Origin: Patescibacteria group bacterium
GTDB taxonomy: Bacteria > Patescibacteriota > Microgenomatia > UBA10105 > UBA927
Direction: 5' to 3'
NCBI GenBank assembly: GCA_023379025.1
Contig: JAMCTH010000009.1
Location: 133,092 to 197,091 of the forward strand
Length of the DNA: 64,000 nucleotides
A program made the translations under genes and the position numbers. The notes beneath the pieces are model-generated. The model had not been told where the DNA came from. It saw only the letters and a list, made by a program, of their open reading frames with translations, and did not search any database. Positions 3,382 through 35,378 of this stretch are shown here, piece by piece (position 1 is the stretch's first letter; each line of letters begins with the position of its first letter).

Positions 3382-3399
3382 GAGAAACGTCTACAAGCG

Positions 3400-14732: not shown

Positions 14733-15680
14733 TCACTTCCCGCGCTTCCAAACAAATATCACGAGTTCCCGCAGATACGCCCGGACGAGCGGAGACGGAC
14801 GCATAGCATCGAGTGCCGATAGTGCTTGTCGGGTAAGCGTCTCAGAGCGATTCGTACCAACGTCCGGCGGGATTTCACCGTCCAGTACGTCGTCACGAAG
14901 CTGAAACAGCTGCCCCACCGGGAGACCGAAACGGGCAAGCTGTGCCAGCGTAAGCGCTGAAGCTCCTGCAAGCGCCGCCCCCATCTGAAGCGGCCGGATC
15001 ACGCTGTACCATGCGGTTTTATAGGTATCAATCGTAGCTTTCGATATCGAGGGGTCTCCGTCCGCAAAAAGGATGTCGAGTGTTTGTCCGAAGATAATCT
15101 CCTGCTTCATCTGTCGGTACAGGGACAGAACACCCCGATGCTCCGTTTTTCCGGTCTGTTCATCTGCCCAAACCAGCGCAAGATCGCCCGCGAGAAGCCC
15201 CATGCTCTCGCCGAAGCGGATGCGCGCCACCCCTCCGACAGCCCTGCTTTTTGCCTGAAAAAACGCATGGACGGTGGGTCGTCCGCGGCGTTTCAGATCC
15301 GCATCCATAATGTCGTCATGAATGAGAGCAAACGTATGAAAAAGCTCTGTTCCGACCATAACCGACATCAGTTCTCCGGGTAAAGCCCGCGCTGGCGCAG
15401 CAGAGCGGACGCTATTGCTCTGTGTCATGTATCCCAACCAAACCAGAAACGGGCGCATGCGCTTTCCTCCGCCGAGCGTAAAGGCTTCAATCGCAGCAAC
15501 AAGCCGGATACATTGGCTGTCTACCTGTTTTGCTTCGGCAGTTTTTTGAACAAAAAACACGCGGAGTGCCCGATCAACTATTCGCTTCATTGCTCTTACA
15601 TCACGCTGAAAATCCATGCAGCCAGTATAATGGAGTATTTCCGGGTTTACAATTTGCCCAATGAGGAGCGTCATCGGCAT
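14733..15680 (-). CDS. trans-polyprenyl diphosphate synthase (FPP/GGPP synthase family)
   Basis: First and second Asp-rich motifs ALIHDDIMD and FQLRDDVLD. Confidence 0.8.
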   Translation of the reverse strand: MPMTLLIGQIVNPEILHYTGCMDFQRDVRAMKRIVDRALRVFFVQKTAEAKQVDSQCIRLVAAIEAFTLGGGKRMRPFLVWLGYMTQSNSVRSAAPARALPGELMSVMVGTELFHTFALIHDDIMDADLKRRGRPTVHAFFQAKSRAVGGVARIRFGESMGLLAGDLALVWADEQTGKTEHRGVLSLYRQMKQEIIFGQTLDILFADGDPSISKATIDTYKTAWYSVIRPLQMGAALAGASALTLAQLARFGLPVGQLFQLRDDVLDGEIPPDVGTNRSETLTRQALSALDAMRPSPLVRAYLRELVIFVWKRGK

Positions 15681-15720
15681 CTCGTTGACACTGGCATTCC
15701 CCTTCCCCTACACTACGGGT

Positions 15721-16044
15721 ATGGAGCGTGTGTTTGCTGCATTTGATATCGGTACCCAGGCATCGCCGTCATTCAGGACCTTTTCCAATTTCGGGGATCT
15801 TGTTTCCGTTATCGTTAAAAATGCCTATGTTCTGGCCGGTGTTTTAAGCTTTCTTTTGTTGGTTTTCGGCGCGTTCGGGTTTATAATGGGAGCAGGCGGC
15901 GGAGACAGCAAAAAAATGGAAGAGGCCAAACAGACGCTTACGTGGGCGGTGGTTGGACTTCTTCTGGTCATCGGATCATATTGGATCATCCTGATCCTAT
16001 CAAAAATTACGGGATATAATATCCTGTCACCGCCGGCGTCGTAA
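15721..16044 (+). CDS. pilin-like two-helix protein, paralog 3 (start set at MERVFAAFD)
   Basis: N-terminal M-E-R-V-F-A motif shared with paralogs 4 and 7; helices flanking MGAGGGDSKKMEEAKQ loop. Confidence 0.5.
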   Translation: MERVFAAFDIGTQASPSFRTFSNFGDLVSVIVKNAYVLAGVLSFLLLVFGAFGFIMGAGGGDSKKMEEAKQTLTWAVVGLLLVIGSYWIILILSKITGYNILSPPAS

Positions 16045-16050
16045 TTCCGT

Positions 16051-16398
16051 ATGGAACAGGTCTTTGCACAGGATGTCATAGGAAAAGTAAACGTGACCAC
16101 CCTCCTCCCCGGAGGGTATCACAGCCTCAGTGGCATCGGTCTCTTCTTTTCCAATGTCCTCCGGCTTCTCTTTGTCGCCGCGGGGATCCTGGCGTTTCTC
16201 AACCTCATTATCGCGGGGTACCAGTACATAACGGCGGGGGGCGACGCCAAAGCGCTTGAAAAAGCGTGGAGCAGAATATGGCAATCTCTTGTCGGCCTTA
16301 TTCTTATCGTCGGCTCATTTGCGCTGGCCGCCCTGTTCGGCTACATCATCTTTGGTGACGCCGGATTTATTCTGAATCCCAAAGTGTATGGACCATAA
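16051..16398 (+). CDS. pilin-like two-helix protein, paralog 4
   Basis: MEQVFAQD N-terminus; ITAGGDAKALEKAWSR loop between two hydrophobic helices. Confidence 0.5.
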   Translation: MEQVFAQDVIGKVNVTTLLPGGYHSLSGIGLFFSNVLRLLFVAAGILAFLNLIIAGYQYITAGGDAKALEKAWSRIWQSLVGLILIVGSFALAALFGYIIFGDAGFILNPKVYGP

Positions 16399-16801
16399 CT
16401 CTCTCTTTCATCATGTGCGCGTGTTGGCACAGGGAAGTTCTGACAGTCTCGGCACCATCGGCGGCGGCGGCTTGGGACCGTTTGCTGCAAAAAATTACTC
16501 CGGCGGAGGAACCCAGGCGCTCGTCGACATTACCAAAGCGGTTTCTGCCATCATCGGATTTCTCACGATTGCAGCGGGCATTTGGTTTCTGTTTCAGCTT
16601 CTGATCGGTGCCATCTCCTGGATCACGAGCGGCGGGGACAAAACAAACCTCGAAAACGCTCGGAACCGCATCATCCACGGGCTCATCGGGCTTATCATCG
16701 TCGTCATGGGGTGGGCTATCCTTGCAATCGTCGGACAGTTTCTGGGGTACGACATACTTCTTTCAAATCCCGGCAGCATCATAAACCAAATCAGGCTCTA
16801 A
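16388..16801 (+). CDS. pilin-like two-helix protein, paralog 5 (true start may be GTG near 16415)
   Basis: VRVLAQG N-terminal motif; AISWITSGGDKTNLENARNRIIH loop region identical at DNA level to paralog 6. Confidence 0.45.
   Translation: MDHNSLFHHVRVLAQGSSDSLGTIGGGGLGPFAAKNYSGGGTQALVDITKAVSAIIGFLTIAAGIWFLFQLLIGAISWITSGGDKTNLENARNRIIHGLIGLIIVVMGWAILAIVGQFLGYDILLSNPGSIINQIRL
16606..16678 (+). repeat. 73-bp perfect direct repeat, copy A (inside pilin paralog 5)
   Basis: cggtgccatctcctggatcacgagcggcggggacaaaacaaacctcgaaaacgctcggaaccgcatcatccac identical to 16966-17038. Confidence 0.9.
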
Positions 16802-16805
16802 CCGT

Positions 16806-17153
16806 ATGCACGAAACGCTGGCACAGCTCACCAATCCCGTCCTCCCGCCGATTATCGGCCAGGGAGGGTCGGCCAGCGGTATACGGGGAGCCGGCATATT
16901 TATCAGCAATCTCATTTCCATTATCTTCATCGTTTCATTTCTTCTTGCGTTTTTTTTCCTCCTGACCGGTGCCATCTCCTGGATCACGAGCGGCGGGGAC
17001 AAAACAAACCTCGAAAACGCTCGGAACCGCATCATCCACTCGCTCATGGGACTTATCATTGTGGCGGCCGCATGGGCCATCATGGTGCTCGTCGGACAGT
17101 TTATCGGGCTCGACATCCGTCAACTGCCCATTCCGTCCATATCAGGGCAGTAG
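16806..17153 (+). CDS. pilin-like two-helix protein, paralog 6
   Basis: MHETLAQLTN N-terminus (cf. paralog 2); contains 73-bp segment identical to paralog 5. Confidence 0.5.
   Translation: MHETLAQLTNPVLPPIIGQGGSASGIRGAGIFISNLISIIFIVSFLLAFFFLLTGAISWITSGGDKTNLENARNRIIHSLMGLIIVAAAWAIMVLVGQFIGLDIRQLPIPSISGQ
16966..17038 (+). repeat. 73-bp perfect direct repeat, copy B (inside pilin paralog 6)
   Basis: Identical to 16606-16678; flanking sequence diverges immediately. Confidence 0.9.
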
Positions 17154-17247
17154 ACATCACACATTGGCACACTATTGACAAGGTGATAATGTTTTGTAAC
17201 AATAGAAAGTACGATATTATCAGGCTATTCTTGAAAGAGGAGGATAT

Positions 17248-17580
17248 ATGCTGCAGGTATTTGCTCAGGATCTGACCATCGGTCAGCCATCAAACGTCAA
17301 AATATCCAATCTCGGCATGCTCATCAGCGCGTTGGTCGGAACACTGCTCATCCTGTCGGCCCTTCTTGCATTTTTCTTCCTCATCCTTGGCGGTATCCAG
17401 TGGATCACCTCGGGCGGAGATAAGGCAGGCATGGAAGCCGCACGGAACAAAATCACCCACGCCATCGTCGGGCTTATCATCGTCGGTGCCGCATGGGCCA
17501 TCATGATCCTCATTCAGAATTTCCTGGGGATCACGGTCATCGGCGGCGGCATCAACATCCCCAAGCCGTTCAATCAATAA
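17248..17580 (+). CDS. pilin-like two-helix protein, paralog 7
   Basis: AGGAGG Shine-Dalgarno 7 nt upstream of ATG; MLQVFAQD N-terminus; ITSGGDKAGMEAARNK loop. Confidence 0.55.
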   Translation: MLQVFAQDLTIGQPSNVKISNLGMLISALVGTLLILSALLAFFFLILGGIQWITSGGDKAGMEAARNKITHAIVGLIIVGAAWAIMILIQNFLGITVIGGGINIPKPFNQ

Positions 17581-17649
17581 AGCCGAGGAGCCGTCATTTT
17601 CCATACTCACCTGTGGACAAAAAACGCGTTTATACGTCATAATACAGGT

Positions 17650-17961
17650 ATGGTATTTGCCGCTACCTATATCGGTGATACGCCGCAAATCAAAGACCTG
17701 GAAACCCTCTTCGGCAACGTCATTGCTTCTGTCATGGGAATAGCTGTTGTCGTCCTCTTTGTCATGCTTCTTGTGGGCGGATTTACCTTCCTTATGTCCG
17801 GCGGCGACCAGAAAAAGCTGGATGCCGCCAAAGGAACGCTTACATCGGCGATCGTCGGAATTGTCGTCGTCATCTCTGCGTATCTTATCCTCCGCACGAT
17901 CGGTGTCATCACCGGAGTAAGCCAAATCACCACGGTAAACTTGAATCTCGGACACCCCTAG
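17650..17961 (+). CDS. pilin-like two-helix protein, paralog 8
   Basis: Two hydrophobic helices flanking MSGGDQKKLDAAKGT loop. Confidence 0.5.
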   Translation: MVFAATYIGDTPQIKDLETLFGNVIASVMGIAVVVLFVMLLVGGFTFLMSGGDQKKLDAAKGTLTSAIVGIVVVISAYLILRTIGVITGVSQITTVNLNLGHP

Positions 17962-18006
17962 CTTGACGGCACTCCCGGAATCATTGATAATACAAACTAC
18001 ACTGCT

Positions 18007-19578
18007 ATGCGGCGATTGTATCTATTGACCGGAGCCATCATTACCCTCCTGACACTTACCCTCTTGTCCCCTCGGGCATACGCTGCACCGCCGACGACAA
18101 CGACCACCTCATCCATCACCGGCACAACCAACGGGGTTGCCGGCGCGGGAACCAGCTGGGTGTATGCATCGGAATACCCCAACGCCATTGCTGAATGTCT
18201 AAAAAATAATGGAAATGGTGCGGCTGGAAATCTCTCCTGCTTTGTTACGGCATTTAACCATAATGACATGAAAAGCCTGACAACAGACATCGTCGCTATC
18301 CCCGGTATTGCATATAACATAAACGAGACAAATATTGCCTATATCCGCCGGATGCAGGACCAATCAGCGCTCGGCGGAGTAACCCGGATCATGGCCTCCA
18401 TGTATGGCACGCCACCCGCAAATCTTGCCTACTGGGCTGCAGATGCCGGACAAACGCTTGGCTTTATCCCTCACTCCGCCATGGCGCAGGGCATCGGCTT
18501 TACCGGGCTAAACCCGCTCCTGGGTGTCTGGAAGGGTTTCCGGAATATGGCCTACGCGCTTCTTGCTGTCGTCATGATCGTTATCGGATTCATGGTGATG
18601 TTCCGGAAAAAGATAGACCCCAAAACCGTCGTCACTGTTCAGAATTCCCTGCCGCGCATCATCGTCGTCCTTATTCTCATCACCTTCTCCTACGCGATTG
18701 TCGGGCTTCTGATAGATCTCATGTATGTGGTCATCGCGGCGGGGATCAAAATCCTTGACGCGAGCCTTCCCGGAGGGGCCACCGTCACGATATTCGGGCA
18801 ACAGGCGGACTTTTTAAACGGCGGTGTCCTTACGCTTCTCGGAAGCATCTTTGCCCCGCTTCTCAATACGAGCTCTCTTGCGCAGAATTTTGGGACCATG
18901 ACGTGGGTGCAGAATTTCTTTGGGGGGCTTCTTACCGCGGTACTCACCGGAGGCACGACGCTTGTGCTTGGGACACTCATAACACTCATTGTCTCAGTTG
19001 CCTATCTTTTTGGGTTTGTCCGAATCTTCTTTATGTTGCTTTCGGCCTATATTAATATAATTTTGGCGGTCATTATCGGCCCGATTCAAATTCTTTTTGA
19101 TGCCCTTCCGGGAGGAACGGGCTTTTCATCCTGGTTTAAAAATCTGTTTCTCAATCTTATTCCATTCCCGATTACCATCTTTATGCTTATTCTCGGATTT
19201 TCCCTAAGCAGCACGCTGGGAACAAATCAACTCTGGCAGCCGCCGCTTCTCCCCCAAGCGATCAATATCGGACCTGTCCAGACCGGCAACATCGCGTCAG
19301 GGCTCGCAACCACACTTTTGTGGCTCGGAATTGTCCTCACTATTCCAACGATTGTGAATAGCATCAAAGAAGCAATGAAGACCAAGGCCGCGGTTCCAGC
19401 CGGTTTTGGCGCCGTCCTTGGTCCTATTGGAGCAGGAGCGGGTCAAATTATCCAACTAGGATATCAGGGGGGAATAATCAAAGGTGCATTTTTCGGCCAC
19501 GACCAGAAAAAATATGGACCAGGCACAGATACAATGGGAAGGGCAACTACTGGCCAATCGACAGGTATTAGTACATAG
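18007..19578 (+). CDS. VirB6/TrbL-like polytopic membrane protein of type IV secretion system
   Basis: Signal peptide plus Thr-rich linker, ~170-aa extracytoplasmic domain, then >=6 predicted TM helices; position immediately after pilin gene array. Confidence 0.5.
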   Translation: MRRLYLLTGAIITLLTLTLLSPRAYAAPPTTTTTSSITGTTNGVAGAGTSWVYASEYPNAIAECLKNNGNGAAGNLSCFVTAFNHNDMKSLTTDIVAIPGIAYNINETNIAYIRRMQDQSALGGVTRIMASMYGTPPANLAYWAADAGQTLGFIPHSAMAQGIGFTGLNPLLGVWKGFRNMAYALLAVVMIVIGFMVMFRKKIDPKTVVTVQNSLPRIIVVLILITFSYAIVGLLIDLMYVVIAAGIKILDASLPGGATVTIFGQQADFLNGGVLTLLGSIFAPLLNTSSLAQNFGTMTWVQNFFGGLLTAVLTGGTTLVLGTLITLIVSVAYLFGFVRIFFMLLSAYINIILAVIIGPIQILFDALPGGTGFSSWFKNLFLNLIPFPITIFMLILGFSLSSTLGTNQLWQPPLLPQAINIGPVQTGNIASGLATTLLWLGIVLTIPTIVNSIKEAMKTKAAVPAGFGAVLGPIGAGAGQIIQLGYQGGIIKGAFFGHDQKKYGPGTDTMGRATTGQSTGIST

Positions 19579-19612
19579 TTGCCTCATTACCTCTCCATCG
19601 TCAACCATTTTT

Positions 19613-22600
19613 CTAGTGCCTACTGCTTTTTTGTTCCTCCTGAATGGATTCATTCGTTGCTACCGCTAGCGTAGCAACGGGTATAACCCACCAATACTTA
19701 CGGAATATCCCCCACGACATACGCCAGCCTAACGTCGCTTTAAAATCTCTCCTCAATTTATTGATGTATTTGATATCAGTAAAGACACCGACCCGTTGAA
19801 TTTCATTCAACACCTCACCAATTGTGTGCTCATCCCACTTGTTGCCCTCCGGACCGAGGTAGCGCACGGAAAGAGATACCGAAGAAGCTATGGATTCCGG
19901 CCATTCCTTTATCTTCCTACCCAACTTATTGTGTTCAAGAAAGTGTTTCCACCCCGGAAACCAACCAAGAACCGGCAAGTGTTCCGCTTCCATTTCACCG
20001 ATATTCTGCATAATTCCCTGAAGCCCAGGAACAAGTCCCAAAAGGCCACGCCATCCGTCCAAAAAAGGATTAAACATTCTGTTTCTATTCATCTCGATCC
20101 AGGTGTCTACGATATGATATAGGGCTTTTTCTGCATCAACCGAAGATGCATATGAGACAAACTGCTGCTTAAATTCATAGAACTTTTTGATGGTTTCCTT
20201 GGGATCTTTCGGCGACAGAAATTCCGGTTTATTGATGAGATCAAAAAATAAATCCCGTATCGCTGCCATATTGATCATATCGCGTCCGCGTCTGAGCATG
20301 ACGCTCGTACCGAGTTTAAAGAAATTTACCTCTTCCCAATCAAAATCAGCAACGGATAGGGTGATCGGAAATTTCGCATGCGCCCATGCTTCCATCGGTG
20401 TGAGATATTGATGATTCTTGGGATCACGATCAGTAGTTACATAACTGTGCACATCTTTCATGACATTTCTGAATGCTGCAATTTTATCTTCGGGTACTTT
20501 AAGCTGCGCCAGAAGCGGTTTTATATGTGCATCAAATCCTTCTTGACTCATAAGGTTCAAGTTTGGGTCTATCAGAAGGTCTCCTTTGCGAATCTTCTGC
20601 TCTGCTATCGAGAGAGCGCGTTGAAACGTGAGCCATTCGGGTGCGCCAAGAACATGGTTTTTTTCAAGTATGCCATCCATTACTTCACCCGAAAGAAGTT
20701 GCAAATATTTAGACGGTGTCCGTTTAAGCATACGATCAAGAACCTGCATACGCTCTGCATCGGTTTGGGCAATATAAAATTGAATACCGAGTGCTTGATT
20801 CTCCCAAGCCAGAGGGCTTCCGTGCTTGGCCATAATATGTTTTCTGATTTCATCGAACGTGCCTGCTTCAAAACGCCAGCCCGTCGCATCAAAGCTTCCT
20901 CCGCCGGCCAAAAAACCCGGTCCCAAAAGCTCGGTAAACGATACCCCCATTTCGCCCTCTGCAAACTCCATGATTTTGCGCATTCGCATCATTTCCGGAG
21001 AGTTACTGTAGGATTTTTCGTCATCCTTCCACGCTTGTGTTTTCGTTATTTTGAAGCCCCTCTCAAGAATTGCTTTTTCACGAAGCATCGCTCGGGCCTG
21101 CTCGCCCATGAGCCCGCCCATATTGAACCGGTGGGCAAAAAGCTCGGGGTTATAGATACGTACTATATCTTCCATAAACGGCGCCCACATAACGGATTTC
21201 CCCTCTATTCCGCTTTCCCGTAGCGTCCGGAACCGGTATTTTTCATGCATGGGCCGAATTGCCTGATAGGCCGATATTGCGGCGATGTGGCCGGAGCCTA
21301 TTTCAATCATCCGCGCCGCAAATATGGCATCTCGGATTTTCCATTCCTGATCCGCTATCTGTTGTCGCGTCATCCCTTGAGACAACATTTCTGCTACCAT
21401 ACGCTCGTGTACTTCGGCCTCTATTGGAGAATAACTTCTGTATACATCCAACGTACCTATTTTCTTTGCATCTGATGGCAATATCGTTTGTTTATCGGAT
21501 AGCCTGGTATAGAGTTCTTTTTTTTCAGTAATAAGCTCGGGGAGTCGTTTAAGAAGTTTTTGTTCGTCCCTATCCAAGGAAACACCTTTTTCCCGTTTCC
21601 CAATCAAATCATCATATTTCTGCTGAAGGGCAATCCACTGATTTCCTACCTCTGTGTAGACCAGAATGTCCTCATCATGAATTGTTACGCCACGCGCTAC
21701 AATCTCAGCTTGCGTTTTGATATTCTCCATGAGCAGTTTTCGTTCCGTAATTTCCTGCTGGGTAGTACCGAGTTGGTTTAAGGAATCCCGACGGCGCATT
21801 TCCATGTAATATTCATCCATGGTAATTTTTTTCGTCGGGTTTGTTTCCCAATACGGCTGAACTTCTTTTGCAAGATACTCAACCGCCTGGTGGTAACGAC
21901 TCATCTTATTTGCGACCATATCGCCGAGCGCGGTATCGTAGTGGGACATTGCCATATTTGCAAGCGGAACTTTGCCCCAGAAATCGAGATCCGCTCCAAG
22001 CATACGCTGAAGCGCTCCGACTTTATCTTTCACATCTCCAGGGTCATATGCTAATGCTTTCAGCAGATACTCGTGTCTGCCGCGATCCTTCCAAAGGTAT
22101 TCATACGGCTGTAACCTAATTGTGCCGATCCTATCACCATATTTCATCTTCATGAATCTTTTAAACGCTTCAAATTTGTACATATCGGGAAGTTCGGGGC
22201 GCTGGCTAGTTCTACCTACTCCGTAGATATCAAAAATAAACTCAGAAAACCATTTTGCCTCTCCTTCTTCGCCTGTCAATATTAATTGCTTTTCATCACT
22301 AGTAAATCCAGTTAGGGGTAACACGGTTATTTCCTGATCCCTATTCTGTAAATCAGGGGGTAAGGTTTGTCTTGCTTCTTCCCACGTAACGTTTATCTCT
22401 CCCATCCGTCCGCGGCCTTTTGCCAATTCTTCCTGATGTAGCTGTGCTAAAGTTACCTGTCGTTGGCGTAATCTCAAAATATACGGTTTTGCTTCACTTG
22501 AACGACGCAGACGAACGGAGTCTCGGGCGAGACGTTCAGCTTCTTCGCCAAGAACTTTCGGGTCATTTATCAAGGTAGGATCTGTATCAAATAATGTTTG

Positions 22601-23305: not shown

Positions 23306-23386
23306 ATAGCCCTTTCTTTACCTCTATTGTATAGTGTCATGACATAGGGAGCAATATAACGGGTTCGCGCCACCGGAAAACATAGA

Positions 23387-23722
23387 TCACCCCGTTTCAC
23401 CCGGCTTGAAACCGACAAACCAGAATCGAGGATCAACAAAGGACTGAATATCCAACACGCGGGTGTGTTGCTTCGGTATCTGACAGACTTTGATCGCTGC
23501 CTCAGCATCATTGGTTCCGGACTCACTGAGGGACCCATACGGAAGAAGGAGGGGAAAAACATGTGCGGGTCCGAGCGCCCGAACCGCAAGAAACAGGCCT
23601 GTTGCAGAGTCTACGCCGCCTGATACCGCTATTACGGCATCGGTAAAGCCCGTCCTCCGAAACGTCTGCCTCATGAAAAGCGTAAGCGTTTGAGCCGGCT
23701 TCCCGGGATCTATCGCATTCAT
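23387..23722 (-). pseudogene. nadE: NAD+ synthetase (nadE) 5' fragment - only the first ~110 codons incl. PP-loop are present
   Basis: AVSGGVDSATGLFLAVRAL...LPYG matches NadE N-terminus (SGGxDS PP-loop); ORF stops after 111 aa and no NadE-like continuation exists in any frame before the next gene (19613..23305). Confidence 0.5.
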
Positions 23723-24276
23723 TGATACAAACGGTGAGACCTCATGTAGTCGGCTACCGCCTCCGGAACAAATTCGGCAACAGAAAGGCCCGCCTTGATC
23801 CGTTCCCGGATTTTAGTCGCGGAAATGTCCGTCACGATAAGGTTTGGGTGGGACACCACCGTCATATTCGGACAGAGCGGTTCGTTTGGGTACCCGTTTC
23901 TCGGAAAGACATAAAACGGCAACTTCCGCAGGAGCTCCTCCCAATTGCCCCATAGGTGAAATGAGGGAAGCCAGTCTGAACCGATGATAAACGTATACGA
24001 GTGTTCTTTCGGAAGAAACGGCAGAAGGTTGATGGTGTTTCCGTCAAGCATATGGTCTATCTCAAGCGTCGAGACCCGCGTTCCGAGAGACTCGATGAGC
24101 TTCACCATCGCAAGCCGGTCGCCGACCGATGCAAGATCCGGCTTTGGCGGATCCTGTCCGTAATTCGGCAGAAACCAGACTTCATCCGTATCCGTAAAAT
24201 CCAACACCTGCCGGGCGATCATTATGTGCCCGAGATGCGGCGGATTAAATGCGCCGCCAAACAATGCGATGTGCAT
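23719..24276 (-). CDS. nadD: nicotinate-nucleotide adenylyltransferase
   Basis: GGAFNPPHLGH (H/TxGH) motif, ISATKIR near C-terminus, 185 aa. Confidence 0.85.
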   Translation of the reverse strand: MHIALFGGAFNPPHLGHIMIARQVLDFTDTDEVWFLPNYGQDPPKPDLASVGDRLAMVKLIESLGTRVSTLEIDHMLDGNTINLLPFLPKEHSYTFIIGSDWLPSFHLWGNWEELLRKLPFYVFPRNGYPNEPLCPNMTVVSHPNLIVTDISATKIRERIKAGLSVAEFVPEAVADYMRSHRLYQ

Positions 24277-24289
24277 AATGGTTTTTGGG

Positions 24290-26473: not shown

Positions 26474-26574
26474 GGCTTAATAATACCATACGGAACGCCG
26501 CCCGCCACACACCCGGAGGAGTCCCGTGAAAACCTAAAAATAGAGTTTTCACAGTCCTGATGCGCTTCGTTATA

Positions 26575-26604
26575 GTTGCGAAGGTTGCCGCAACCTTTTA
26601 GAAT
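26575..26604 (+). promoter_or_regulatory. sigma70-like promoter TTGCGA-18-TAGAAT with a perfect 17-nt palindrome (AAGGTTGC-C-GCAACCTT) filling the spacer; candidate repressor operator for the PrgI-VirB4-hydrolase operon
   Basis: Direct reading of 26575-26604; a second 8-bp inverted repeat GTGAAAAC...GTTTTCAC lies at 26526-26552 in the same divergent intergenic region. Confidence 0.35.
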
Positions 26605-26632
26605 GAGAGTGGGTTTAACCGGCAAAATAATC

Positions 26633-28051
26633 ATGGAACAACATCCTGTACCGCAAAATGTCACAACGTTTCAGTTCCGCCTGATCGGTGACATGACAAT
26701 CAAACAATTCGGGTACCTCGCCGGGGGCGTGATCCTTGCGTATCTCTGTTACAAGCTTCCGCTTCCGTTCTTTTTTACCTGGCCGCTGACGCTCCTTACG
26801 GGTCTTGGAGGGTTTGGCCTTGCATTTGTCCCCATTGAAGAACGGCCCATGGACGTGTGGATCATGTCGTTTTTCAAAAACGTCTACAGCCCGACCCAGT
26901 ACGTGTGGCAAAAAACTAAACAGCCGGAACTGCATGCCGCATCCTCCGTGTCTGCTCCGGATCAAAAACCGGGGGGTGCGCAAGACCTGCGCGGCGGACC
27001 TCCCGGTGCTCCGGCAGCGCTCTCCCAAACACCACACAAGCAGGGTGCCTCGTTGGCTGCCCTGGTGCGGGCAGCGCTTTTTCCGGCCGGCACCATCGCA
27101 CATTCAGACACCACGGCGGCTCACCGACCGGCTCTTTCGGCGAACACCCCGCCGGCCGCAACAACCCACATAAAAACACCGCCGCTGCTTCTCCATCGTT
27201 TTTCCTATGGCATCGGCGCCGTCATCGCCCGGATCAAACGGCTTTTTGCAGCGCCCGCCGTATCCCCGAAGACTACACCGCAGTATGCGTTTTCAGATGT
27301 CTTTGCATCGCTCCATGCCGGGCCAAAAACTTCCCCGCACAAAGCACAGCCTTCCCGCCCGCCCGCCATCCTTGAAACGCTCAGGCCGGAAACGCCGTCG
27401 TTCCCCATTCCGTTCACCCCGATCCCAACAATTCCGCACACGCCGCAACCCCTGGCAACCGACACAGGCATCCAGACGCCGGCGCCTTCAAACACCCGAA
27501 CCGAACCCCAACCCCCAAACCCTCAAAGCCGTCTGACGGTCTCTCCCGTTGAAAAAGAGCGTATGGAGCAGCAGTTGCATGAGCTGAACAGACACGCCTC
27601 AGCCGCACCCTCCGCGACGTACATGACGCCGTCCGCGCCGGGAAAATCATCAAACACGGTGCGCGTCATAGCACCGGAAGGAACGATCAGGGCCGGTATC
27701 CCCAGGCTCACCACGGTCCCGAATGTTGTAACCGGCATTATAAAAAACGAAACGGGAGACCTGCTGCCCGGGATACTCATCACCGTACGGGACTTTGAAG
27801 GTGTGCCGCTCCGGGCGCTCAAGTCAAATAAGCTCGGACAGTTCGCCGCATCAACCCCGCTTCAAAACGGCACCTATGTGATTGAGGTGGAAGACCCGAG
27901 GGGAAAACACCACTTTGACCGGGCGCAGATTACGCTCGCAGGAAACCAGGCTCCCGCTCTTGAAATCAGTGCAAAAACCGAAAAACAGCTCAACCGGGAA
28001 CGGCTGGAACGGGAAATTTTCGGCCGCACACCCGGCGCGCCCCACACATGA
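26633..28051 (+). CDS. PrgI/VirB3-like small-membrane-domain protein extended by a Pro-rich linker and a C-terminal carboxypeptidase-regulatory-like (beta-sandwich) domain; start set at MEQHPVPQ
   Basis: N-terminal TTFQFRLIGDMTIKQFGYLAGGVILAYL + second TM helix matches PrgI-family (VirB3-like) layout directly upstream of VirB4; long P/A/T-rich low-complexity region; C-terminal GTYVIEVEDPRGKHHFD. Confidence 0.45.
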   Translation: MEQHPVPQNVTTFQFRLIGDMTIKQFGYLAGGVILAYLCYKLPLPFFFTWPLTLLTGLGGFGLAFVPIEERPMDVWIMSFFKNVYSPTQYVWQKTKQPELHAASSVSAPDQKPGGAQDLRGGPPGAPAALSQTPHKQGASLAALVRAALFPAGTIAHSDTTAAHRPALSANTPPAATTHIKTPPLLLHRFSYGIGAVIARIKRLFAAPAVSPKTTPQYAFSDVFASLHAGPKTSPHKAQPSRPPAILETLRPETPSFPIPFTPIPTIPHTPQPLATDTGIQTPAPSNTRTEPQPPNPQSRLTVSPVEKERMEQQLHELNRHASAAPSATYMTPSAPGKSSNTVRVIAPEGTIRAGIPRLTTVPNVVTGIIKNETGDLLPGILITVRDFEGVPLRALKSNKLGQFAASTPLQNGTYVIEVEDPRGKHHFDRAQITLAGNQAPALEISAKTEKQLNRERLEREIFGRTPGAPHT

Positions 28052-28704
28052 CGAAACAGATTGTTCCCATCCGCTCTTCCACACAGGAGTTCATAGAAAT
28101 AGAGGACGTTAGCCACAATATCGTTATGTTTAAGGATGGATCATGTGCTGCGATTATTACAACCACGGCTGTAAACTTCGGCCTCCTTTCAGAAAAAGAG
28201 CAGGAGGCAATTATCTATGCCTACGCAGGGTTTCTGAACTCACTCTCCTTCCCCGTAGAAATCATCGTGCGCTCGCAACAAAAGGATGTCACCGCGTATC
28301 TCAGACTGCTTGAGGCGCAGGAAAAGAAAGAAACAAACCCCAAGCTTGTCAAAAACATCCACGATTACCGCATGTTCGTTGCGGAAACCGTCAAAGAAAA
28401 GGATGTTCTCGACAAAAAGTTCTACATCATCATACCCTTTTCATACCTGGAGCTCGGCGCGTCAACAAAAGTATTGTTTGGCGGTAAAACCCGCGGACTC
28501 CCCTACCCCAAAGACTATGTTTATGAACGCGCCCTTTCCGTCCTGACCCCAAAATGCGATCATGTCATCCGACTGCTGGGACGGCTCGGCCTCCGCGGCA
28601 CACAACTCACGAGCGAACAGGTAAAAAAATATTTCTTCCTCGCCTATAACCCAAGCAGCAGCGCTCCCGAGGGAAAACCCGGGTCCGTGCCGGAAACACC
28701 ATGA
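28048..28704 (+). CDS. VirB4/TrbE/CagE-family ATPase, N-terminal domain encoded as separate ORF
   Basis: IVPIRSSTQEFIEIEDVSHNIVMFKDGSCAAIITTTAVNFGLLSEKEQEAIIYAYAGFLNSLSFPVEIIV matches the CagE_TrbE_VirB N-terminal domain; stop overlaps next start (ATGA). Confidence 0.55.
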   Translation: MTKQIVPIRSSTQEFIEIEDVSHNIVMFKDGSCAAIITTTAVNFGLLSEKEQEAIIYAYAGFLNSLSFPVEIIVRSQQKDVTAYLRLLEAQEKKETNPKLVKNIHDYRMFVAETVKEKDVLDKKFYIIIPFSYLELGASTKVLFGGKTRGLPYPKDYVYERALSVLTPKCDHVIRLLGRLGLRGTQLTSEQVKKYFFLAYNPSSSAPEGKPGSVPETP

Positions 28705-30689
28705 CAAATTTCAATCTGCAGACATTCATAAAAAAATTTATCGATCCGATGCCGGACGATACCCCCATCAGGCATGAGGCGGGCGTGCCCCTGTCTATTG
28801 CCGATGTCATCGCGCCGCCCCTTGTCGACGTGGACTTTGATTATCTCAAAATCGGCGAGTGGTATTTCCGAACGCTTTTTGTCGTTGGGTACCCGAGATT
28901 TGTAAGCGCCAATTGGCTCGAACCGCTCATCTCATTCAACCACACGCTTGATATCTCGATGTTTATTTATCCGACCAAATCGGAGGAGGTCCTTGAAAAC
29001 TTAAAAAGGAAAGTTGGTGAGATGGAAGCGACCATCCAGTCCGACATGAAACGCGGACGGGTGGTCGAACCGTCCATACAGGTCGCGCTCGAAGACGCGC
29101 TCTCCCTCCAGCAGGAGCTTGCAAAAGGTTCCGAACGGTTCTTTCAGTTTGGCTTATACATAACCATACCGGCCAAATCTCTTGAGGATGTAAACAAAAC
29201 AACATCGCAGGTAGAGGCAACACTCGGATCACTTCTTATCATTACCAAAAAAGCGGTGCTCCAGATGGATGAGGGATTTAGAACGACACTGCCCATGGGC
29301 CAGGACCGCATTGTTGTCACGCGAAACATGGACACGACCTCCCTCGCCACAACGTTTCCGTTCACGACGTCCGAGCTTACGGCAAACGAGGGCATTCTCT
29401 ACGGCATGAACGAGCATAACGGAAGCCTTATCATCTTCGACCGCTTCACCCTTGAAAACGCCAACACTGTCGTATTCGGAAAATCCGGGGTCGGCAAAAG
29501 CTACATGGTAAAACTGGAAATCATGCGCAGTCTTATGTTTGACACCGAAATCATCGTCATCGATCCGGAAAACGAGTATGAGGCGCTCACGCACGCGCTC
29601 GGCGGCGAATACATCCGGTTCCATTTTGGCTCGACCACAAAACTCAACCCCTTTGATTTGGCCCTTCTTACGCGGGGAGCGCCGAAGGACCTGCGGGCTC
29701 AGGATGCGGAGGAGGAGGAGGAAAGCGAACTCAACCAGAAAATTCTTTCTCTCCACGGATTTTTCCGCGTTGTCATGGGAACATTGAGCGCCACCGAGGA
29801 CGCCCTTCTTGATCGCGCGCTTATTCTGGCTTATAAACAAAAGGGTATTACTCCCGATCCCGCCACCCAAACCCTCGAACCGCCGCTTATGGAAGATCTT
29901 TATAAAGCGCTGGTCGGCATGGAAGAACCGATGGCAAGGGGCCTCGCCGACCGGATAGAAAAGTTTGTAAAAGGGAGTCTTGTCGGCATCTTTGATCAGC
30001 AGACCAACGTGGAGATCAGAAACCCGCTGACGGCATTCTCCATCCGCGACCTTGAAGAGGAGCTCCGGCCGATTGCCATGTATCTCATTCTTGATTTTAT
30101 CTGGACAAAAGTCCGCCGCGACATGAAAAGAAGAATTCTCGTCGTTGATGAGGCTTGGTATATGATGAAATATCCGGATTCCGGACAATTTCTTAACTCT
30201 ATCGCCAAACGCGCAAGAAAATATTACCTGGGGCTAACCACCATTTCGCAGGATGTTGAAGACTTTTTGTCCGTAGACCTCGGAAAGGCCATCATACAAA
30301 ACAGCAGCCTCCAGGTGCTCCTGAAACAGTCAACCGCGGCAATAGATCAGGTTGCAAAAGTTTTTTTCCTATCAGAAGGAGAGAAGCACCTGCTTCTCTC
30401 GGCGGACGTCGGAGAGGGGCTCTTTTTTGCCGGTCCGGCACACGCTGCCGTCCGCGTCATTGCTTCCCCAGTGGAGCACGAACTCGCAACCACCAAACCG
30501 CAGGAGCTGGCGGGAAGAAGGCCGCTGCAGTCCGGTCAGGCTTCTTCCGCAGGAGACCAGGCTGTTCAGCCGGCCGGAGCGGATGGGGCCCGGAAGCCTC
30601 CCGCAATGCCAACGGACCACAGAACGCTTCCTGTTTCTAACAGGCCGATATTTACTGTTGAAACGGTTGCCCAGCCGAAACTATCCTAA
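28701..30689 (+). CDS. VirB4/TrbE/TraC-family T4SS ATPase, C-terminal ATPase domains
   Basis: Walker A VFGKSGVGKSYMV, IVIDPENEY, Walker B ILVVDEAWYMM, LGLTTISQDVEDF; 662 aa. Confidence 0.75.
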   Translation: MTNFNLQTFIKKFIDPMPDDTPIRHEAGVPLSIADVIAPPLVDVDFDYLKIGEWYFRTLFVVGYPRFVSANWLEPLISFNHTLDISMFIYPTKSEEVLENLKRKVGEMEATIQSDMKRGRVVEPSIQVALEDALSLQQELAKGSERFFQFGLYITIPAKSLEDVNKTTSQVEATLGSLLIITKKAVLQMDEGFRTTLPMGQDRIVVTRNMDTTSLATTFPFTTSELTANEGILYGMNEHNGSLIIFDRFTLENANTVVFGKSGVGKSYMVKLEIMRSLMFDTEIIVIDPENEYEALTHALGGEYIRFHFGSTTKLNPFDLALLTRGAPKDLRAQDAEEEEESELNQKILSLHGFFRVVMGTLSATEDALLDRALILAYKQKGITPDPATQTLEPPLMEDLYKALVGMEEPMARGLADRIEKFVKGSLVGIFDQQTNVEIRNPLTAFSIRDLEEELRPIAMYLILDFIWTKVRRDMKRRILVVDEAWYMMKYPDSGQFLNSIAKRARKYYLGLTTISQDVEDFLSVDLGKAIIQNSSLQVLLKQSTAAIDQVAKVFFLSEGEKHLLLSADVGEGLFFAGPAHAAVRVIASPVEHELATTKPQELAGRRPLQSGQASSAGDQAVQPAGADGARKPPAMPTDHRTLPVSNRPIFTVETVAQPKLS

Positions 30690-30701
30690 TACCGGTTTTG
30701 T

Positions 30702-33035
30702 ATGCCCGATAAAAACCACACCACACCCCAGGGAACGCTCGAGACCTTATTCCGGAGTGACCCCGCGCTCCTAAAGGCCGTTCAAATATTTGAGTATGCA
30801 AAAACACAACCGGAGTGGGAAAGCAAACTTACAACATTCCTCCAACAGACATACAACCTGACACCCGGACAATACGTTCTGACGGACCGGGTGTTTGGCG
30901 AGGCAATTAAGGCTTTTGCCCGACACTATCTGTTTGACACGGAGAGCGACCCCTCTGAGGGGCAAACGCTTGCTTCCACCGTTCCGCTCGACATCATCGA
31001 AAGCGCGTTCGTTTATCCGGAACGGCACCTTCAGGAAGAGACGTACCGTTCGTTTGCCAGACGTTTAACTGAAAATTATTACAACCAGACCGAACGATAT
31101 CTCCGGCGGGAGCAGGCCGAATACAACGCACGGCACCAGCTTGAGGAGTCAAGGAGGCGAGAGCGTGTGGCGGCCGCCATTGCTGACGCCGCCCAAAAGG
31201 CGCAATCAGCCGATGTATTCGAGGTTGAAGCACGGAGGATTCTCGATGCAAATGATGTAGTACAAAACATCGGGCCTCAGCGCGCCGCAGACCTTGTCCT
31301 CAGGCGGGAAATGGAGGTCTTTTCTCCGGCATCGGCTGTCCGGGACAGGGCCCGCGCAATTACCGACGAAATGCTCCGGTCCCGCACGAACCGTCCGGAT
31401 CTGCTTGCCGCAACCCTCGTGGAACAAAGCGCGTCTCACCCAAACACCCTTATTGCTTCATTGGTACCGGCCGCAGAGCGTGAAGCGGCGGCCCTTGGCG
31501 TCATAACGGCCGCCTATGTTCCGGGACACCCCGGCACACCGCCGGACAGAATCTTGCGTGCCTACAAGGATGGTGCCGCACAGCTATTGGGTGATGTTGC
31601 TCTTGGCATGTTGAATCCGGAGACAAGAGACCGCGTCATCGAGGCGGTGAAAGGACAATCATTTGAGCGTGCCATAAACGACAGGGGCGGACTGGAGAAA
31701 CGGTTCGGGACAGGGACAACCCCGTTTCTCGTACAGCTCCGTGCTGATACGCACAAAGCGGTCGCGGAAAGTTCTGCTGCCGCCCTGCGGAGCGCCAACG
31801 CCCACGGGCTTGCGGACAGGTGGCTTGCGCCGCTTCTCCTGCGATGGGGGCCGGGAGCGGTTCCTGTTGACGAGACTGCGTTCGCGCTGGTAGGGTTTGT
31901 GCAATCTTCCGGATTCTCATCGTTCCGGCCGCCCACCCCACCCACAACCCCCCCCACCGCCCATCCCGGGCTTGTCCCAGGAATCTATGCACAGAAAGAA
32001 GGGGCGCTACAATTTCTCTCAGCCGTGTGGGGGTGTCCAGAATTTCATCTGGCCACCCTGGTTCAGCAAAATATGGTGTCGGTCCGGTTTTCATATCTTG
32101 CTCTTTCACAGGATTTGTTTCTGTGGATTACCACAATCGGCTCCCCGGTTAAAAAAGCGGGCGCCATGGGAACTCTGGCTGCCATCGGAAAATCGGGTCT
32201 CTCAACAGGACTCGCCATCCTATTAGCCCCTGAAACGGGGGGCCTAAGTTTAATCGGAAAGATGGCTCTCAGTTTTTCTATAGATAAACTAACCAACGGA
32301 ATTTCCGGGGCGTTCCGTTTTTTTTCAAACCCCACGGGAAAAGAGGACCGGCTGGCTATGAACGGGTGGCTACTCCCCTTTCTCATTATCGCCCTTACAC
32401 TCATCCCTCTTTGGTTATTGTCAACGGCTTTTATGAGAGTGACGTCCGGCGCATTCAGTGTAACATCGAAACAAATCGGCAGCGGCCCGCCGGCCGGTAC
32501 GCCCATTATTTACACCGGCCCTCCTCCTCCGGCAACCCCGCGCGTTCCCTCCGCGGGACTCGCGGGCTGTCCTGTGGGCGGCGGCGTAGTTACGCAGGGA
32601 CCAAACGGCGCGGAGTCCCACCGGGGAATTGACGCGTATGACTTTGCCGTACCAATGGGGACGCCCGTCCGGGCCACGAGCGACGGCTTTGTTGCTGCGG
32701 CGGTGACGTCGTTTCGTCCAAACGAGTATAAATACCAGGACTTTGGGAACTATGTCCGCATGGTCGGAAGCGGCCCGGGCGGCGAATACTACACAACCTA
32801 TGCACACCTATTGAGCATAGCCCCGGAAGTTCAAACGGCGCTTCAGGCCGTGAGCGAAATGACAAACAGTCCGGCACGGCAAAATGACCCGGAACTTCTA
32901 AAACAGGCGACGATACGGGCGGGAACCATCATCGGATACACCGATAATACCGGTTACAGCACGGGGCCGCATCTTCATTATCAATATAACGGCCCCGGGC
33001 AAATGGTACTCCCTGACGGCTGTGGAGGACAATAA
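30702..33035 (+). CDS. membrane-associated cell-wall hydrolase with C-terminal M23 (LytM) peptidase domain (VirB1/PrgK-like role)
   Basis: HRGIDAYDFAVPMGTPVRATSDGFV...GNYVRMV...YAHL...GYTDNTGYSTGPHLHYQY (M23 HxxxD / HxH signature); central block of TM helices; immediately downstream of VirB4. Confidence 0.7.
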   Translation: MPDKNHTTPQGTLETLFRSDPALLKAVQIFEYAKTQPEWESKLTTFLQQTYNLTPGQYVLTDRVFGEAIKAFARHYLFDTESDPSEGQTLASTVPLDIIESAFVYPERHLQEETYRSFARRLTENYYNQTERYLRREQAEYNARHQLEESRRRERVAAAIADAAQKAQSADVFEVEARRILDANDVVQNIGPQRAADLVLRREMEVFSPASAVRDRARAITDEMLRSRTNRPDLLAATLVEQSASHPNTLIASLVPAAEREAAALGVITAAYVPGHPGTPPDRILRAYKDGAAQLLGDVALGMLNPETRDRVIEAVKGQSFERAINDRGGLEKRFGTGTTPFLVQLRADTHKAVAESSAAALRSANAHGLADRWLAPLLLRWGPGAVPVDETAFALVGFVQSSGFSSFRPPTPPTTPPTAHPGLVPGIYAQKEGALQFLSAVWGCPEFHLATLVQQNMVSVRFSYLALSQDLFLWITTIGSPVKKAGAMGTLAAIGKSGLSTGLAILLAPETGGLSLIGKMALSFSIDKLTNGISGAFRFFSNPTGKEDRLAMNGWLLPFLIIALTLIPLWLLSTAFMRVTSGAFSVTSKQIGSGPPAGTPIIYTGPPPPATPRVPSAGLAGCPVGGGVVTQGPNGAESHRGIDAYDFAVPMGTPVRATSDGFVAAAVTSFRPNEYKYQDFGNYVRMVGSGPGGEYYTTYAHLLSIAPEVQTALQAVSEMTNSPARQNDPELLKQATIRAGTIIGYTDNTGYSTGPHLHYQYNGPGQMVLPDGCGGQ

Positions 33036-33037
33036 TC

Positions 33038-34069
33038 ATGAAACGCAGACACATCGTCGTCCTTTTTGCGCTTTTTATTGTTTCTCTTTTTTCCGCGTAT
33101 CTGTGGCGTACGCAAAAACGTCCGCCCCCGCCGCAACCGATAGGCGGAGCCCGGTCCGCCGTCCCGATACCTCCCCCGAGCTTTCCTCCCGTACCCACAA
33201 TAGAACAGCCTGCGTACGTCGTTCCAACAGAAGCGGCGTTTCCCGGTTCTCTCCCTGCGTATGTCCGCACGTCTTCATTTTCAGACAACACACCTCCTTC
33301 TTCTGTAGCGGCGCGCCTGGGGTTCTCTGGTACCCCAAAAACGCTCGCTACAAGCCGGGGGAGTGTGTATTTATGGACAAACGGGGCGGCGTCTTTTACC
33401 ATCGGAGGAAATCCCGCGGACTTTGATTACCAATCCGGAGAAAATGCGGGTCGGCAAATCACAACAATTACCCCGGAAGGCGCACGGGCAATGCTTGAGG
33501 CGTTTCTGAAAAAAGCAGGGCTTACGGGCCCTGAAACAGGGTTTTCATTAACGGCGATCCACTACTTTGACCCGAAAAGCCCGGGCGGAGCAAACGAGAT
33601 ATTTGATGCATCACGGGCGACTCTCGCTCTTTTTGTTTTCGACTATACGCTTGGAGGGCGCCCTCTCTATGGTGGTATTCCCGGCACCGGAGGCATATCC
33701 ATCCGTATAAACGGGACGGGCTCCGTTGTTTCCGTTTCCGGCTATTGGTATCCAGGCCTGAAAAAAGAGGGGTCCTTCCCCATTATTTCGTCTGCGGCGG
33801 CTGTGGCGCGGCTCATCGCGCATTCAGGAGTGCTGCTGGATGTTTCGTCAACAAACAAGACCAACGAAGAACCGGAAACGTTCTCCCTGGCAACCACAAC
33901 CATCACGAAAACGGAGTTGGGATATTATGCGTCCCAGGGAGAGTCCCGGCTTTCCCCAATTTTCGTGTTTTTCGGGAAAAGCAACAATGATAACACGGGA
34001 AATCCGGTAACGACGGTGAGTGTCGTGTCGGCGGTCGCAACATTATCCGCCACGCCGGCGCAGCGATAA
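33038..34069 (+). CDS. N-terminally anchored extracytoplasmic protein, unknown (possible VirB8-like component, speculative)
   Basis: TM helix IVVLFALFIVSLFSAYLW, Pro-rich linker, ~280-aa globular part; last gene of the T4SS operon, start overlaps preceding stop. Confidence 0.4.
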   Translation: MKRRHIVVLFALFIVSLFSAYLWRTQKRPPPPQPIGGARSAVPIPPPSFPPVPTIEQPAYVVPTEAAFPGSLPAYVRTSSFSDNTPPSSVAARLGFSGTPKTLATSRGSVYLWTNGAASFTIGGNPADFDYQSGENAGRQITTITPEGARAMLEAFLKKAGLTGPETGFSLTAIHYFDPKSPGGANEIFDASRATLALFVFDYTLGGRPLYGGIPGTGGISIRINGTGSVVSVSGYWYPGLKKEGSFPIISSAAAVARLIAHSGVLLDVSSTNKTNEEPETFSLATTTITKTELGYYASQGESRLSPIFVFFGKSNNDNTGNPVTTVSVVSAVATLSATPAQR

Positions 34070-35370: not shown

Positions 35371-35378
35371 AAAGCAGG

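Follow-up and report, generated by a model that had tools for sequence, protein, structure and literature searches.

Does the block of genes at positions 15661-34069 of the DNA analysed here encode a type IV secretion system (T4SS), and if so, does it belong to a mobile element or to the core equipment of its carrier? The DNA is a 64-kb stretch, referred to as the window in the following, of a Patescibacteria group bacterium (GenBank assembly GCA_023379025.1, contig JAMCTH010000009.1, positions 133,092 to 197,091 of the forward strand), and the locus was examined by listing and translating its open reading frames (ORFs). It is highly probable that the locus represents a chromosomal, non-conjugative T4SS of a Patescibacteria cell (Ca. 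Gottesmanbacteria, Microgenomatia), which is derived from the monoderm conjugation machinery of the MPF_FATA type. We establish here the identities of its components, their order and operon structure, its standing as a core locus and the lack of a relaxase among the scanned ORFs. A previous reading of the same letters without any database search, hereafter the sequence-only reading, had proposed a minimal Gram-positive (Prg/Tcp-like) T4SS. This interpretation was right, but the system had already been published between 2023 and 2025 (PMC10633639, PMC12102498, PMC12857230). What goes beyond these papers is the fusion of PrgI with a CarboxypepD_reg domain, a divergent VirB6 candidate, an adjacent operon of a VirD4-like ATPase, nadD and a large orphan gene, an ATPase family shared with phages, and the swapping of catalytic domains in the hydrolase slot.

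In the ORF listing, the region between 15.6 and 34.1 kb is made up of three transcription units. In unit 1 (15661-19578, plus strand), six small ORFs of 103-137 aa at 15661-17961 precede the gene of a polytopic membrane protein with 523 aa. Unit 2 (26473 to 19613, minus strand), which is convergent with unit 1 and divergent from unit 3, comprises a 727-aa ATPase, nadD, a NAD-synthase fragment and a 1230-aa ORF. Unit 3 (26576-34069, plus strand) contains ORFs of 491, 218, 662, 777 and 343 aa, of which neighbours overlap by 4 nt or are separated by gaps of 2-12 nt. The components, including two outlying pilin genes, are listed below; pilin scores refer to the Pfam family T4SS_pilin (PF18895) with its cut-off of 26.6 bits, TM stands for transmembrane and T4CP for type IV coupling protein.

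26576-28051, plus strand: PrgI/VirB3-like fusion protein, 491 aa, with a TM hairpin, a Pro-rich linker and a C-terminal CarboxypepD_reg-like beta-sandwich
28048-28704, plus strand: TrsD-like protein, 218 aa, matching TrsD (NF041427) with 30 bits; 4-nt overlap with each neighbour
28701-30689, plus strand: VirB4 ATPase of the CD1110/MPF_FATA type, 662 aa, matching NF045971 with 377 bits against a cut-off of 325
30702-33035, plus strand: M23 peptidoglycan endopeptidase, 777 aa, Peptidase_M23 with 51 bits at residues 645-770, one TM helix at 560-578
33038-34069, plus strand: bitopic 343-aa protein with an N-terminal TM helix, a Pro-rich linker and an alpha/beta ectodomain
24290-26473, minus strand: soluble VirD4/T4CP-like P-loop ATPase, 727 aa, divergent from the core operon
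23719-24276, minus strand: nadD, a housekeeping passenger gene in the operon, CTP_transf_like with 76 bits
23387-23722, minus strand: nadE fragment, 111 aa, covering positions 3-84 of 242 of the NAD_synthase profile
19613-23305, minus strand: 1230-aa all-alpha protein, encoded at the end of the VirD4-like/nadD operon; hydrophobic tail at the C-terminus, signal peptide absent
18007-19578, plus strand: candidate VirB6, 523 aa, with a signal peptide and about seven TM helices
15661-16044, plus strand: array pilin 1, 29.1 bits
16051-16398, plus strand: array pilin 2, 25.5 bits, just under the cut-off, aligning with the other paralogues
16388-16801, plus strand: array pilin 3, 23.4 bits, under the cut-off, aligning with the other paralogues
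16806-17153, plus strand: array pilin 4, 31.8 bits
17248-17580, plus strand: array pilin 5, 32.8 bits, the best-conserved paralogue
17650-17961, plus strand: array pilin 6, 43 bits, with weak matches to TrbC/VirB2 (PF04956) and the Mbov_0395 pilin-like family
8883-9245, plus strand: outlying pilin with two TM helices, 26.8 bits, the sole paralogue with a full signal peptide (...RVYA/QQ)
9255-9575, plus strand: outlying pilin with two TM helices, 32.7 bits

Hidden Markov model searches with each protein confirmed the component calls, save for VirB6, whose match is transitive, and the 343-aa protein, which has no match. The assignment to the Gram-positive T4SSs is borne out by VirB4, which belongs to the CD1110 (MPF_FATA) family and also matches the solved C-terminal domain of a VirB4 (PDB 4ag5, 5e-46). 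The ORF covers positions 185-730 of the 752 positions of NF045971, and the N-terminal part that is absent from it is supplied by the preceding 218-aa TrsD ORF, which also matches N-terminal positions of VirB4 models. A scan with VirB4 over one genome per species yielded the best 80 loci, which are the basis of the locus counts given here, and in 69 of them TrsD is separate from VirB4. A frameshifted or broken VirB4 is ruled out, since TrsD is such a conserved separate gene. The sequence-only reading had spoken of a two-ORF VirB4: two ORFs are indeed present, but they are not an odd split and represent the normal TrsD and VirB4 arrangement of the clade. In their survey of 3,035 Patescibacteria genomes, Quinonero-Coronel et al. 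(2025) found that TrsD accompanies VirB4 more often than any other protein, reported PrgI/VirB3 as well and placed the Patescibacteria VirB4 proteins in a monophyletic clade nested in MPF_FATA (PMC12102498).

The first gene of the core operon had been described before as encoding a PrgI/VirB3-like protein fused to a beta-sandwich, and this is what the Pfam matches support, with PrgI (PF12666) at 31.5 bits above its cut-off of 27 and CarboxypepD_reg at 22.7 bits below its cut-off of 32.3. Among the orthologues across Microgenomatia, 26 of 30 match PrgI and 29 of 30 match CarboxypepD_reg; the Pro-rich linker is variable, and several columns of the beta-sandwich are invariant in the orthologue alignment. 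Judged by these orthologues, the fusion is conserved across the class Microgenomatia, and it is not mentioned in the main text of PMC12102498. The longest ORF of this gene opens at a TTG (26576) and the orthologues align from an ATG at 26633 (MEQHPVPQN...), which is probably the true start, 57 nt downstream.

The gene after virB4 encodes, as had been assumed, an M23 hydrolase, which is predicted to be membrane-anchored and would fill the VirB1/PrgK role. Genes for M23 or lysozyme proteins are known to follow virB4 in Patescibacteria (PMC12102498). When the post-VirB4 slot was inspected in 40 loci (L004-L080), an M23 domain was present in 16 and an SLT or SLT_3 domain in five, S11, beta-lactamase-like and C39-like domains occurred singly, four proteins carried DUF11 repeats, and at least 23 of the 40 loci held a peptidoglycan-active domain. 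The hydrolase slot thus swaps catalytic domains between lineages. The last protein of the operon, with 343 aa, is conserved in position in related loci at 19-29% identity. It has no match in Pfam, NCBIfam or PHROG, nor does a profile of its family match any PDB entry. A structure prediction for this protein with AlphaFold2 (AF2) from a shallow alignment reached a pLDDT of 36.6, and this low-confidence model shows three units of a helix plus a sheet. A protein search with the single sequence returned almost only the protein itself, and a search with the family alignment gave nine homologues, mostly close to each other. From its size and topology it is a possible analogue of the TcpC/VirB8-like scaffold.

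Whether the locus is mobile can be answered from its relatives. All of the best 80 VirB4 loci are from Patescibacteria (candidate phyla radiation, CPR) metagenome-assembled genomes with 56-81% identity, in line with the previous suggestion of a T4SS-like machine typical of ultra-small or episymbiotic bacteria. The nearest relatives are Ca. Gottesmanbacteria (73-81% identity), and more distant loci are found in Curtiss-, Levy-, Davies-, Beckwith- and Woesebacteria. PrgI-TrsD-VirB4 occurs in every one of the 80, and most of these loci have dnaN-dnaA at a distance of 4-9 kb on the downstream side. The Gottesmanbacteria order is pilins and VirB6-like gene, then large ORF, (nadE), nadD and VirD4-like gene, then PrgI, TrsD, VirB4, hydrolase and a protein of about 330 aa, then dnaN and dnaA, and the synteny comparison showed that it is kept across about 35 species-level genomes. 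The median identities to the window proteins among Gottesmanbacteria are 76% for VirB4, 68% for the VirD4-like ATPase, 67% for DnaA, 64% for TrsD, 50% for DnaN, 34-53% for most pilins, 32% for the 1230-aa protein, 29% for the M23 protein and 27% for the 343-aa protein. Since the values of VirB4 and the VirD4-like ATPase stand against those of the M23 protein, the 343-aa protein and the pilins, the cytoplasmic motor is, as far as identities tell, under housekeeping-grade constraint, and the predicted exposed parts evolve fast. No relaxase, integrase or transposase family was found among about 50 scanned ORFs of the window, a scan from which seven ORFs of 108-283 aa were left out, and this agrees with the sequence-only reading, which had recognised neither relaxase nor integrase. 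The GC content of the locus is 0.46-0.56 compared to 0.45-0.56 in the rest of the window, and the nearest plasmid-borne VirB4 proteins are CD1110-family members of Firmicutes and Actinobacteria with 30-38% identity. Because synteny extends over about 35 genomes and VirB4 (76%) is more conserved than DnaA (67%), the locus is part of the chromosomal core equipment and no mobile element. The earlier proposal of a chromosomal, possibly core apparatus is herewith confirmed, as the ATPases are at least about as conserved as DnaA. Many of the related loci (L001, L003-L005 and others) are filed under the title "uncultured Gammaproteobacteria bacterium" (binchicken co-assemblies), and isolated records carry Bathyarchaeia and Nanoarchaeia titles. 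These titles are placeholder or erroneous taxonomy, the gene content matching that of CPR-named loci.

The second ATPase, predicted before as a soluble VirD4-like protein, exceeds the cut-off of TrwB_AAD_bind (30.4 bits, cut-off 20.5) as well as that of DUF87 and has no predicted TM helix or hydrophobic segment, hence not the membrane anchor of coupling proteins. It aligns to TrwB (1e9r) and DotL around Walker A, with a weak Walker B in the TrwB alignment. Compared to the only 30 bits for the canonical T4CP profile, phrog_5156 is matched with 226 bits. The protein is 24% identical to gp156 of Bacillus phage G over 92% of its length, and it also matches ORF201 of 0305phi8-36 and proteins of SPO1-like phages. 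A soluble N-terminal domain of about 330 aa is common to it and the phage proteins (aligned from residue 56). In phage G (L081, 2177-6319), gp156 directly adjoins gp155, which is VirB4-like and 32-37% identical to the window VirB4, and this suggests that the two ATPases work together. By these matches, the VirD4-like ATPase is a member of a soluble family that is found together with VirB4-like ATPases even in jumbo phages. A phage origin of the locus was rejected, the phage homologues being limited to the ATPases and a generic M23 domain. In 29 of 37 Gottesmanbacteria loci, the VirD4-like gene directly adjoins the core operon in divergent orientation, with 64-71% identity across these 29. Phylum-wide, T4CP homologues were found near virB4 in 148 of 5,713 cases (PMC12102498). 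The possibility that the ATPases belong to families unrelated to secretion, which the sequence-only reading itself had raised against its interpretation, does not hold for VirB4 with its CD1110 family and holds in part for the VirD4-like ATPase, which passes the T4CP cut-off yet stands nearer to the phage family.

Upstream of these operons, six tandem pilin-like genes and two outlying ones had been noticed before, and all eight small ORFs with two TM helices match PF18895 with E-values from 6e-5 to 5e-11, five of them reaching the gathering score. Each paralogue contains a conserved SGGD-K loop flanked by two hydrophobic helices, and the identity to the first paralogue is 19-33%. Arrays of this kind are widespread, as 441 arrays of 2-11 VirB2-like pilins were reported, especially from Microgenomatia and Saccharimonadia (PMC12102498). 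The pilin at 17248-17580 is 79-81% identical to its orthologues in two Gottesmanbacteria species (L008 and L016), and the other paralogues reach 34-60%. As the best conserved of the paralogues it is likely the major pilin, and the remaining diverged copies are likely variable minor or alternative pilins. The pilins starting at 9255, 16051, 16806, 17248 and 17650 have no signal peptide and begin with M-x-x-(V/L)-(F/L)-A-Q, which resembles the end of the signal peptide of the pilin at 8883-9245. The orthologues in L008 and L016 open alike (MEKVFAQ). An artefact of start-codon choice does not account for these starts, because in-frame stop codons lie just upstream.

The 523-aa protein behind the pilin array had been called VirB6-like. 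What stands of this call is the polytopic topology and the position, as its family follows the pilin array invariably in related loci. The window protein itself has no significant family match and none to PF04610, with pLS20_p028 at 17 bits. Support comes via three of 14 orthologues, which weakly match TrbL/VirB6 (PF04610; best E-value 0.0015), and a profile of the family has no PDB match. Taken together, a divergent VirB6 is probable from topology, position and orthologues. VirB6 is known to be scarce in Microgenomatia (PMC12102498).

The 1230-aa protein, in which no recognisable domain had been seen, indeed has no match in Pfam, NCBIfam, PHROG or the PDB. Structure prediction gave a confident all-alpha model, which has no fold match in the PDB or BFVD. 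A protein search returned almost only the protein itself, as an identical NCBI hypothetical protein of a "Patescibacteria group bacterium". The slot between the VirB6-like gene and nadD/nadE is always occupied by an ORF of 1,000-1,420 aa in Gottesmanbacteria (including L010, L013, L014, L016, L024 and L034), and these large ORFs fall into several clusters without detectable mutual homology. When the 1230-aa family was compared with large ORFs in the same slot of other Microgenomatia by hhalign, the probability was below 1%, except for 47% with an N-terminal stretch of L014. Many of these ORFs nevertheless end in the same way: a hydrophobic helix, in many cases YWWV..., is followed by a charged stretch and then by a Gly run that closes with His. 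This common C-terminus may be an anchoring or recognition signal. The 1230-aa protein could be a lineage-specific accessory factor or substrate. Of its operon neighbours, the nadE fragment is, judged by orthologues of 250-290 aa in related loci, probably a pseudogene or a truncated form peculiar to this genome.

On the other side of unit 3, the following genes give the context of the locus and are not components:

34085-36728, minus strand: dnaN and dnaA with the replication origin region, from Pfam matches
34085-35395, minus strand: dnaN ORF, lying 16 nt downstream of the 343-aa gene
35379-36728, minus strand: dnaA, from Pfam matches

The locus abuts the replication origin, since the minimum of the cumulative GC skew lies at about 34-36 kb of the window. 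Such a proximity of the T4SS to dnaA/dnaN was reported for Paceibacteria and Microgenomatia (PMC12102498). The dnaN ORF has about 66 surplus N-terminal codons before the Pfam-matched start. Between the outlying pilins and the array, a minus-strand isoprenoid cluster encodes UppS, a NUDIX protein, an amino-acid-kinase-fold (IPK-like) protein, an ECF-type sigma factor and a polyprenyl synthase. Pfam matches confirm the whole setting noted before, with dnaA/dnaN beside the locus, nadD embedded and the isoprenoid cluster nearby. The ECF-type sigma-70 factor inside this cluster (14175-14714, minus strand), about 1 kb before the pilin array, is a possible candidate for a regulator. Divergent from the two outlying pilin genes lies a gene for a secreted 575-aa protein (7072-8799, minus strand) with a coiled coil and a SpoIID (peptidoglycan-remodelling) domain, which may be a second wall-remodelling factor tied to the pilins. 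The remaining genes of the window encode envelope polysaccharide enzymes, sulfatases, a thiamine pyrophosphokinase and a tmRNA (3338-3759, minus strand; Rfam RF00023, 99 bits), the sole Rfam family detected in the window. A promoter scan did not rise above the shuffled control, and terminator-like sites modestly exceeded it, most of them within coding regions; for these reasons neither scan helped to define operons.

How might such a machine work? We infer pilus formation, the roles of the proteins without a family match, the substrate and the direction of transport as follows. In T4SSs, VirB4 serves as pilin dislocase and assembly motor with VirB3 as its membrane tether, VirB6 lies at the path of pilin and substrate, and hydrolases open the wall. 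In the window, the PrgI-TrsD-VirB4-M23-343-aa operon would build a monoderm-type membrane channel, with the PrgI/VirB3-like hairpin and the TrsD domain presumably docking a VirB4 hexamer at the membrane. The M23 endopeptidase would locally open the peptidoglycan and the bitopic 343-aa protein may be the wall-spanning scaffold. VirB4 would draw the two-helix pilins from the membrane beside the VirB6-like protein and polymerise them, and the resulting pilus or conduit would extend to the host bacterium. Tubular structures, possibly T4SS pili, were described at a parasite-host interface (bioRxiv 10.64898/2026.06.21.733656). The position of the VirD4-like ATPase next to the core operon argues for translocation of something relaxase-independent: the ATPase probably feeds such a substrate, and the co-transcribed tail-anchored 1230-aa protein may be its partner or cargo. 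We regard protein export that establishes a feeding interface as the most likely use, an estimate that is about evenly balanced. That the Gottesmanbacteria T4SS gained a substrate module, consisting of the soluble VirD4-like ATPase and the co-operonic, tail-anchored large protein from a hypervariable slot as effector or host-specificity determinant of an otherwise invariant machine, is a speculation that we consider rather unlikely to be correct.

Several points weigh against the reading as a chromosomal T4SS of non-conjugative function. The VirB6 call is carried by weak transitive matches, and no VirB8 homologue could be demonstrated by the PDB profile search or the AF2 model of the 343-aa protein. 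The VirD4-like ATPase, besides its missing anchor, matches coupling proteins weakly outside the P-loop and has much closer kin in Bacillus phages, where a T4SS channel does not exist. Finally, the T4CP homologue of Southlakia epibionticum is non-essential (PMC12102498).

The strongest competitor is an uptake machine like archaeal Ced or Helicobacter ComB, which would import host DNA or RNA into a nucleotide-auxotrophic cell. Patescibacteria do not synthesise nucleotides, and one cultivated member takes RNA of its host as food and has putative T4SS tubes where the two cells meet (bioRxiv 10.64898/2026.06.21.733656). In S. epibionticum, ComEC-dependent competence is dispensable for viability and the T4SS essential (PMC12857230). 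The missing relaxase would fit as well, and among the secondary matches of VirB4 and the VirD4-like ATPase are CedB (50.6 bits) and CedD (29.9 bits), which serve DNA import in archaea. However, these scores fall well short of the family cut-offs of 700 and 600 bits, the matched parts are mostly P-loop regions, and neither a CedA-like channel nor a DNA-binding component was found. No T4SS of the MPF_FATA lineage is known to import anything. Import is for us a serious possibility, albeit on the unlikely side. A VirB2-type pilus that serves host attachment only, with the VirD4-like ATPase and the 1230-aa protein as unrelated neighbours, would explain that the eight pilin paralogues diverge as fast as host-contact proteins do and that the ATPase family also occurs in phages, and in most Patescibacteria the T4CP is unlinked to virB4 in addition to being non-essential in S. 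epibionticum (PMC12102498). We hold this to be improbable, since the VirD4-like gene keeps its adjacent, divergent place in 29 of 37 Gottesmanbacteria loci at 64-71% conservation, its phage G homologue directly adjoins a VirB4-like gene, and type IV pili already provide Patescibacteria with adhesion (PMC12857230). An integrated conjugative element or its remnant, which would move DNA like the Gram-positive Prg, Tra or Tcp systems, could claim the CD1110-family VirB4, PrgI, TrsD, the T4CP-like ATPase and closest non-CPR homologues on conjugative plasmids, but is largely refuted and barely credible in view of the scanned ORFs being devoid of relaxase, integrase and transposase, the same dnaA/dnaN-adjacent position in tens of species-level genomes, a VirB4 more conserved than DnaA, a GC content that stays within the limits seen elsewhere in the window, the embedded housekeeping gene nadD and the rarity of relaxases phylum-wide, with 109 in 3,035 genomes (PMC12102498).

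A chromosomal T4SS of non-conjugative function is therefore the reading that we follow. The locus is no new kind of system, but it offers a clean reference map for Microgenomatia, a class that has been little studied, and in this map each gene slot is either assigned or flagged. Patescibacteria account for much of the diversity of bacteria and grow attached to other microbes, and no T4SS other than theirs is known to be essential to its carrier. The PrgI-beta-sandwich fusion, the adjacent VirD4-like ATPase with relatives in jumbo phages and the confidently modelled large protein without known fold provide leads, as does the locus as a whole with regard to the missing pieces VirB6, VirB8, coupling ATPase and possible cargo.

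How does the locus compare to known systems? Like VirD4/TrwB, the window ATPase has a P-loop nucleotide-binding domain, which can be aligned to TrwB and DotL around Walker A, but in place of an N-terminal TM domain it has the soluble domain of about 330 aa known from gp156 of phage G. With the Gram-positive conjugative T4SSs (pCF10 Prg, pIP501 Tra, CTn2/CD1110, pGO1 Trs) the locus shares a VirB4 above the CD1110 cut-off and a hydrolase encoded after VirB4, and its PrgI-(TrsD)-VirB4-M23 order mirrors PrgI-PrgJ-PrgK, as the sequence-only reading had recognised. TrsD is known from pGO1, and the architecture is a monoderm one, lacking VirB7, VirB9 and VirB10 (PMC12102498). In contrast to these systems, no relaxase or oriT was found (about 50 window ORFs scanned), the locus is not on a mobile element, it has VirB2-like pilins, which those systems lack, it has neither a PrgB-type adhesin nor a demonstrable VirB8-like protein, and its T4CP-like ATPase is devoid of a membrane domain. 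Whereas some monoderm VirB1 homologues combine SLT and CHAP domains (PMC12102498), the window hydrolase has M23 only.

The closest counterpart is the T4SS of the Patescibacteria clade, which a 2025 FEMS review regards as a distinct newcomer to the T4SS superfamily (PMC12857230). By transposon sequencing (Tn-seq), Wang et al. (2023) found an unusual Gram-positive-like T4SS to be essential for epibiotic growth of S. epibionticum, with a series of essential pilins and no recognisable relaxase (PMC10633639). Like this system (SEML1_0006-0019) and those surveyed (PMC12102498), the locus has an MPF_FATA-related VirB4 that is preceded by a TrsD ORF of its own, PrgI/VirB3, a candidate for VirB6, a peptidase gene following virB4, a diverged array of PF18895 pilins, no relaxase among the scanned ORFs, and a chromosomal site near dnaA/dnaN. 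VirB4 lineage, separate TrsD, PrgI, pilin array, lack of a relaxase and the dnaA/dnaN site place it within the clade. Within that clade, the window holds the Gottesmanbacteria (Microgenomatia) version, which is set apart from the other systems by a VirD4-like ATPase directly beside the core operon, a PrgI with a C-terminal CarboxypepD_reg domain, a VirB6 candidate too divergent for standard profiles, two pilin genes 6 kb off beyond the isoprenoid cluster, and a lineage-specific 1230-aa protein that is co-transcribed with the ATPase.

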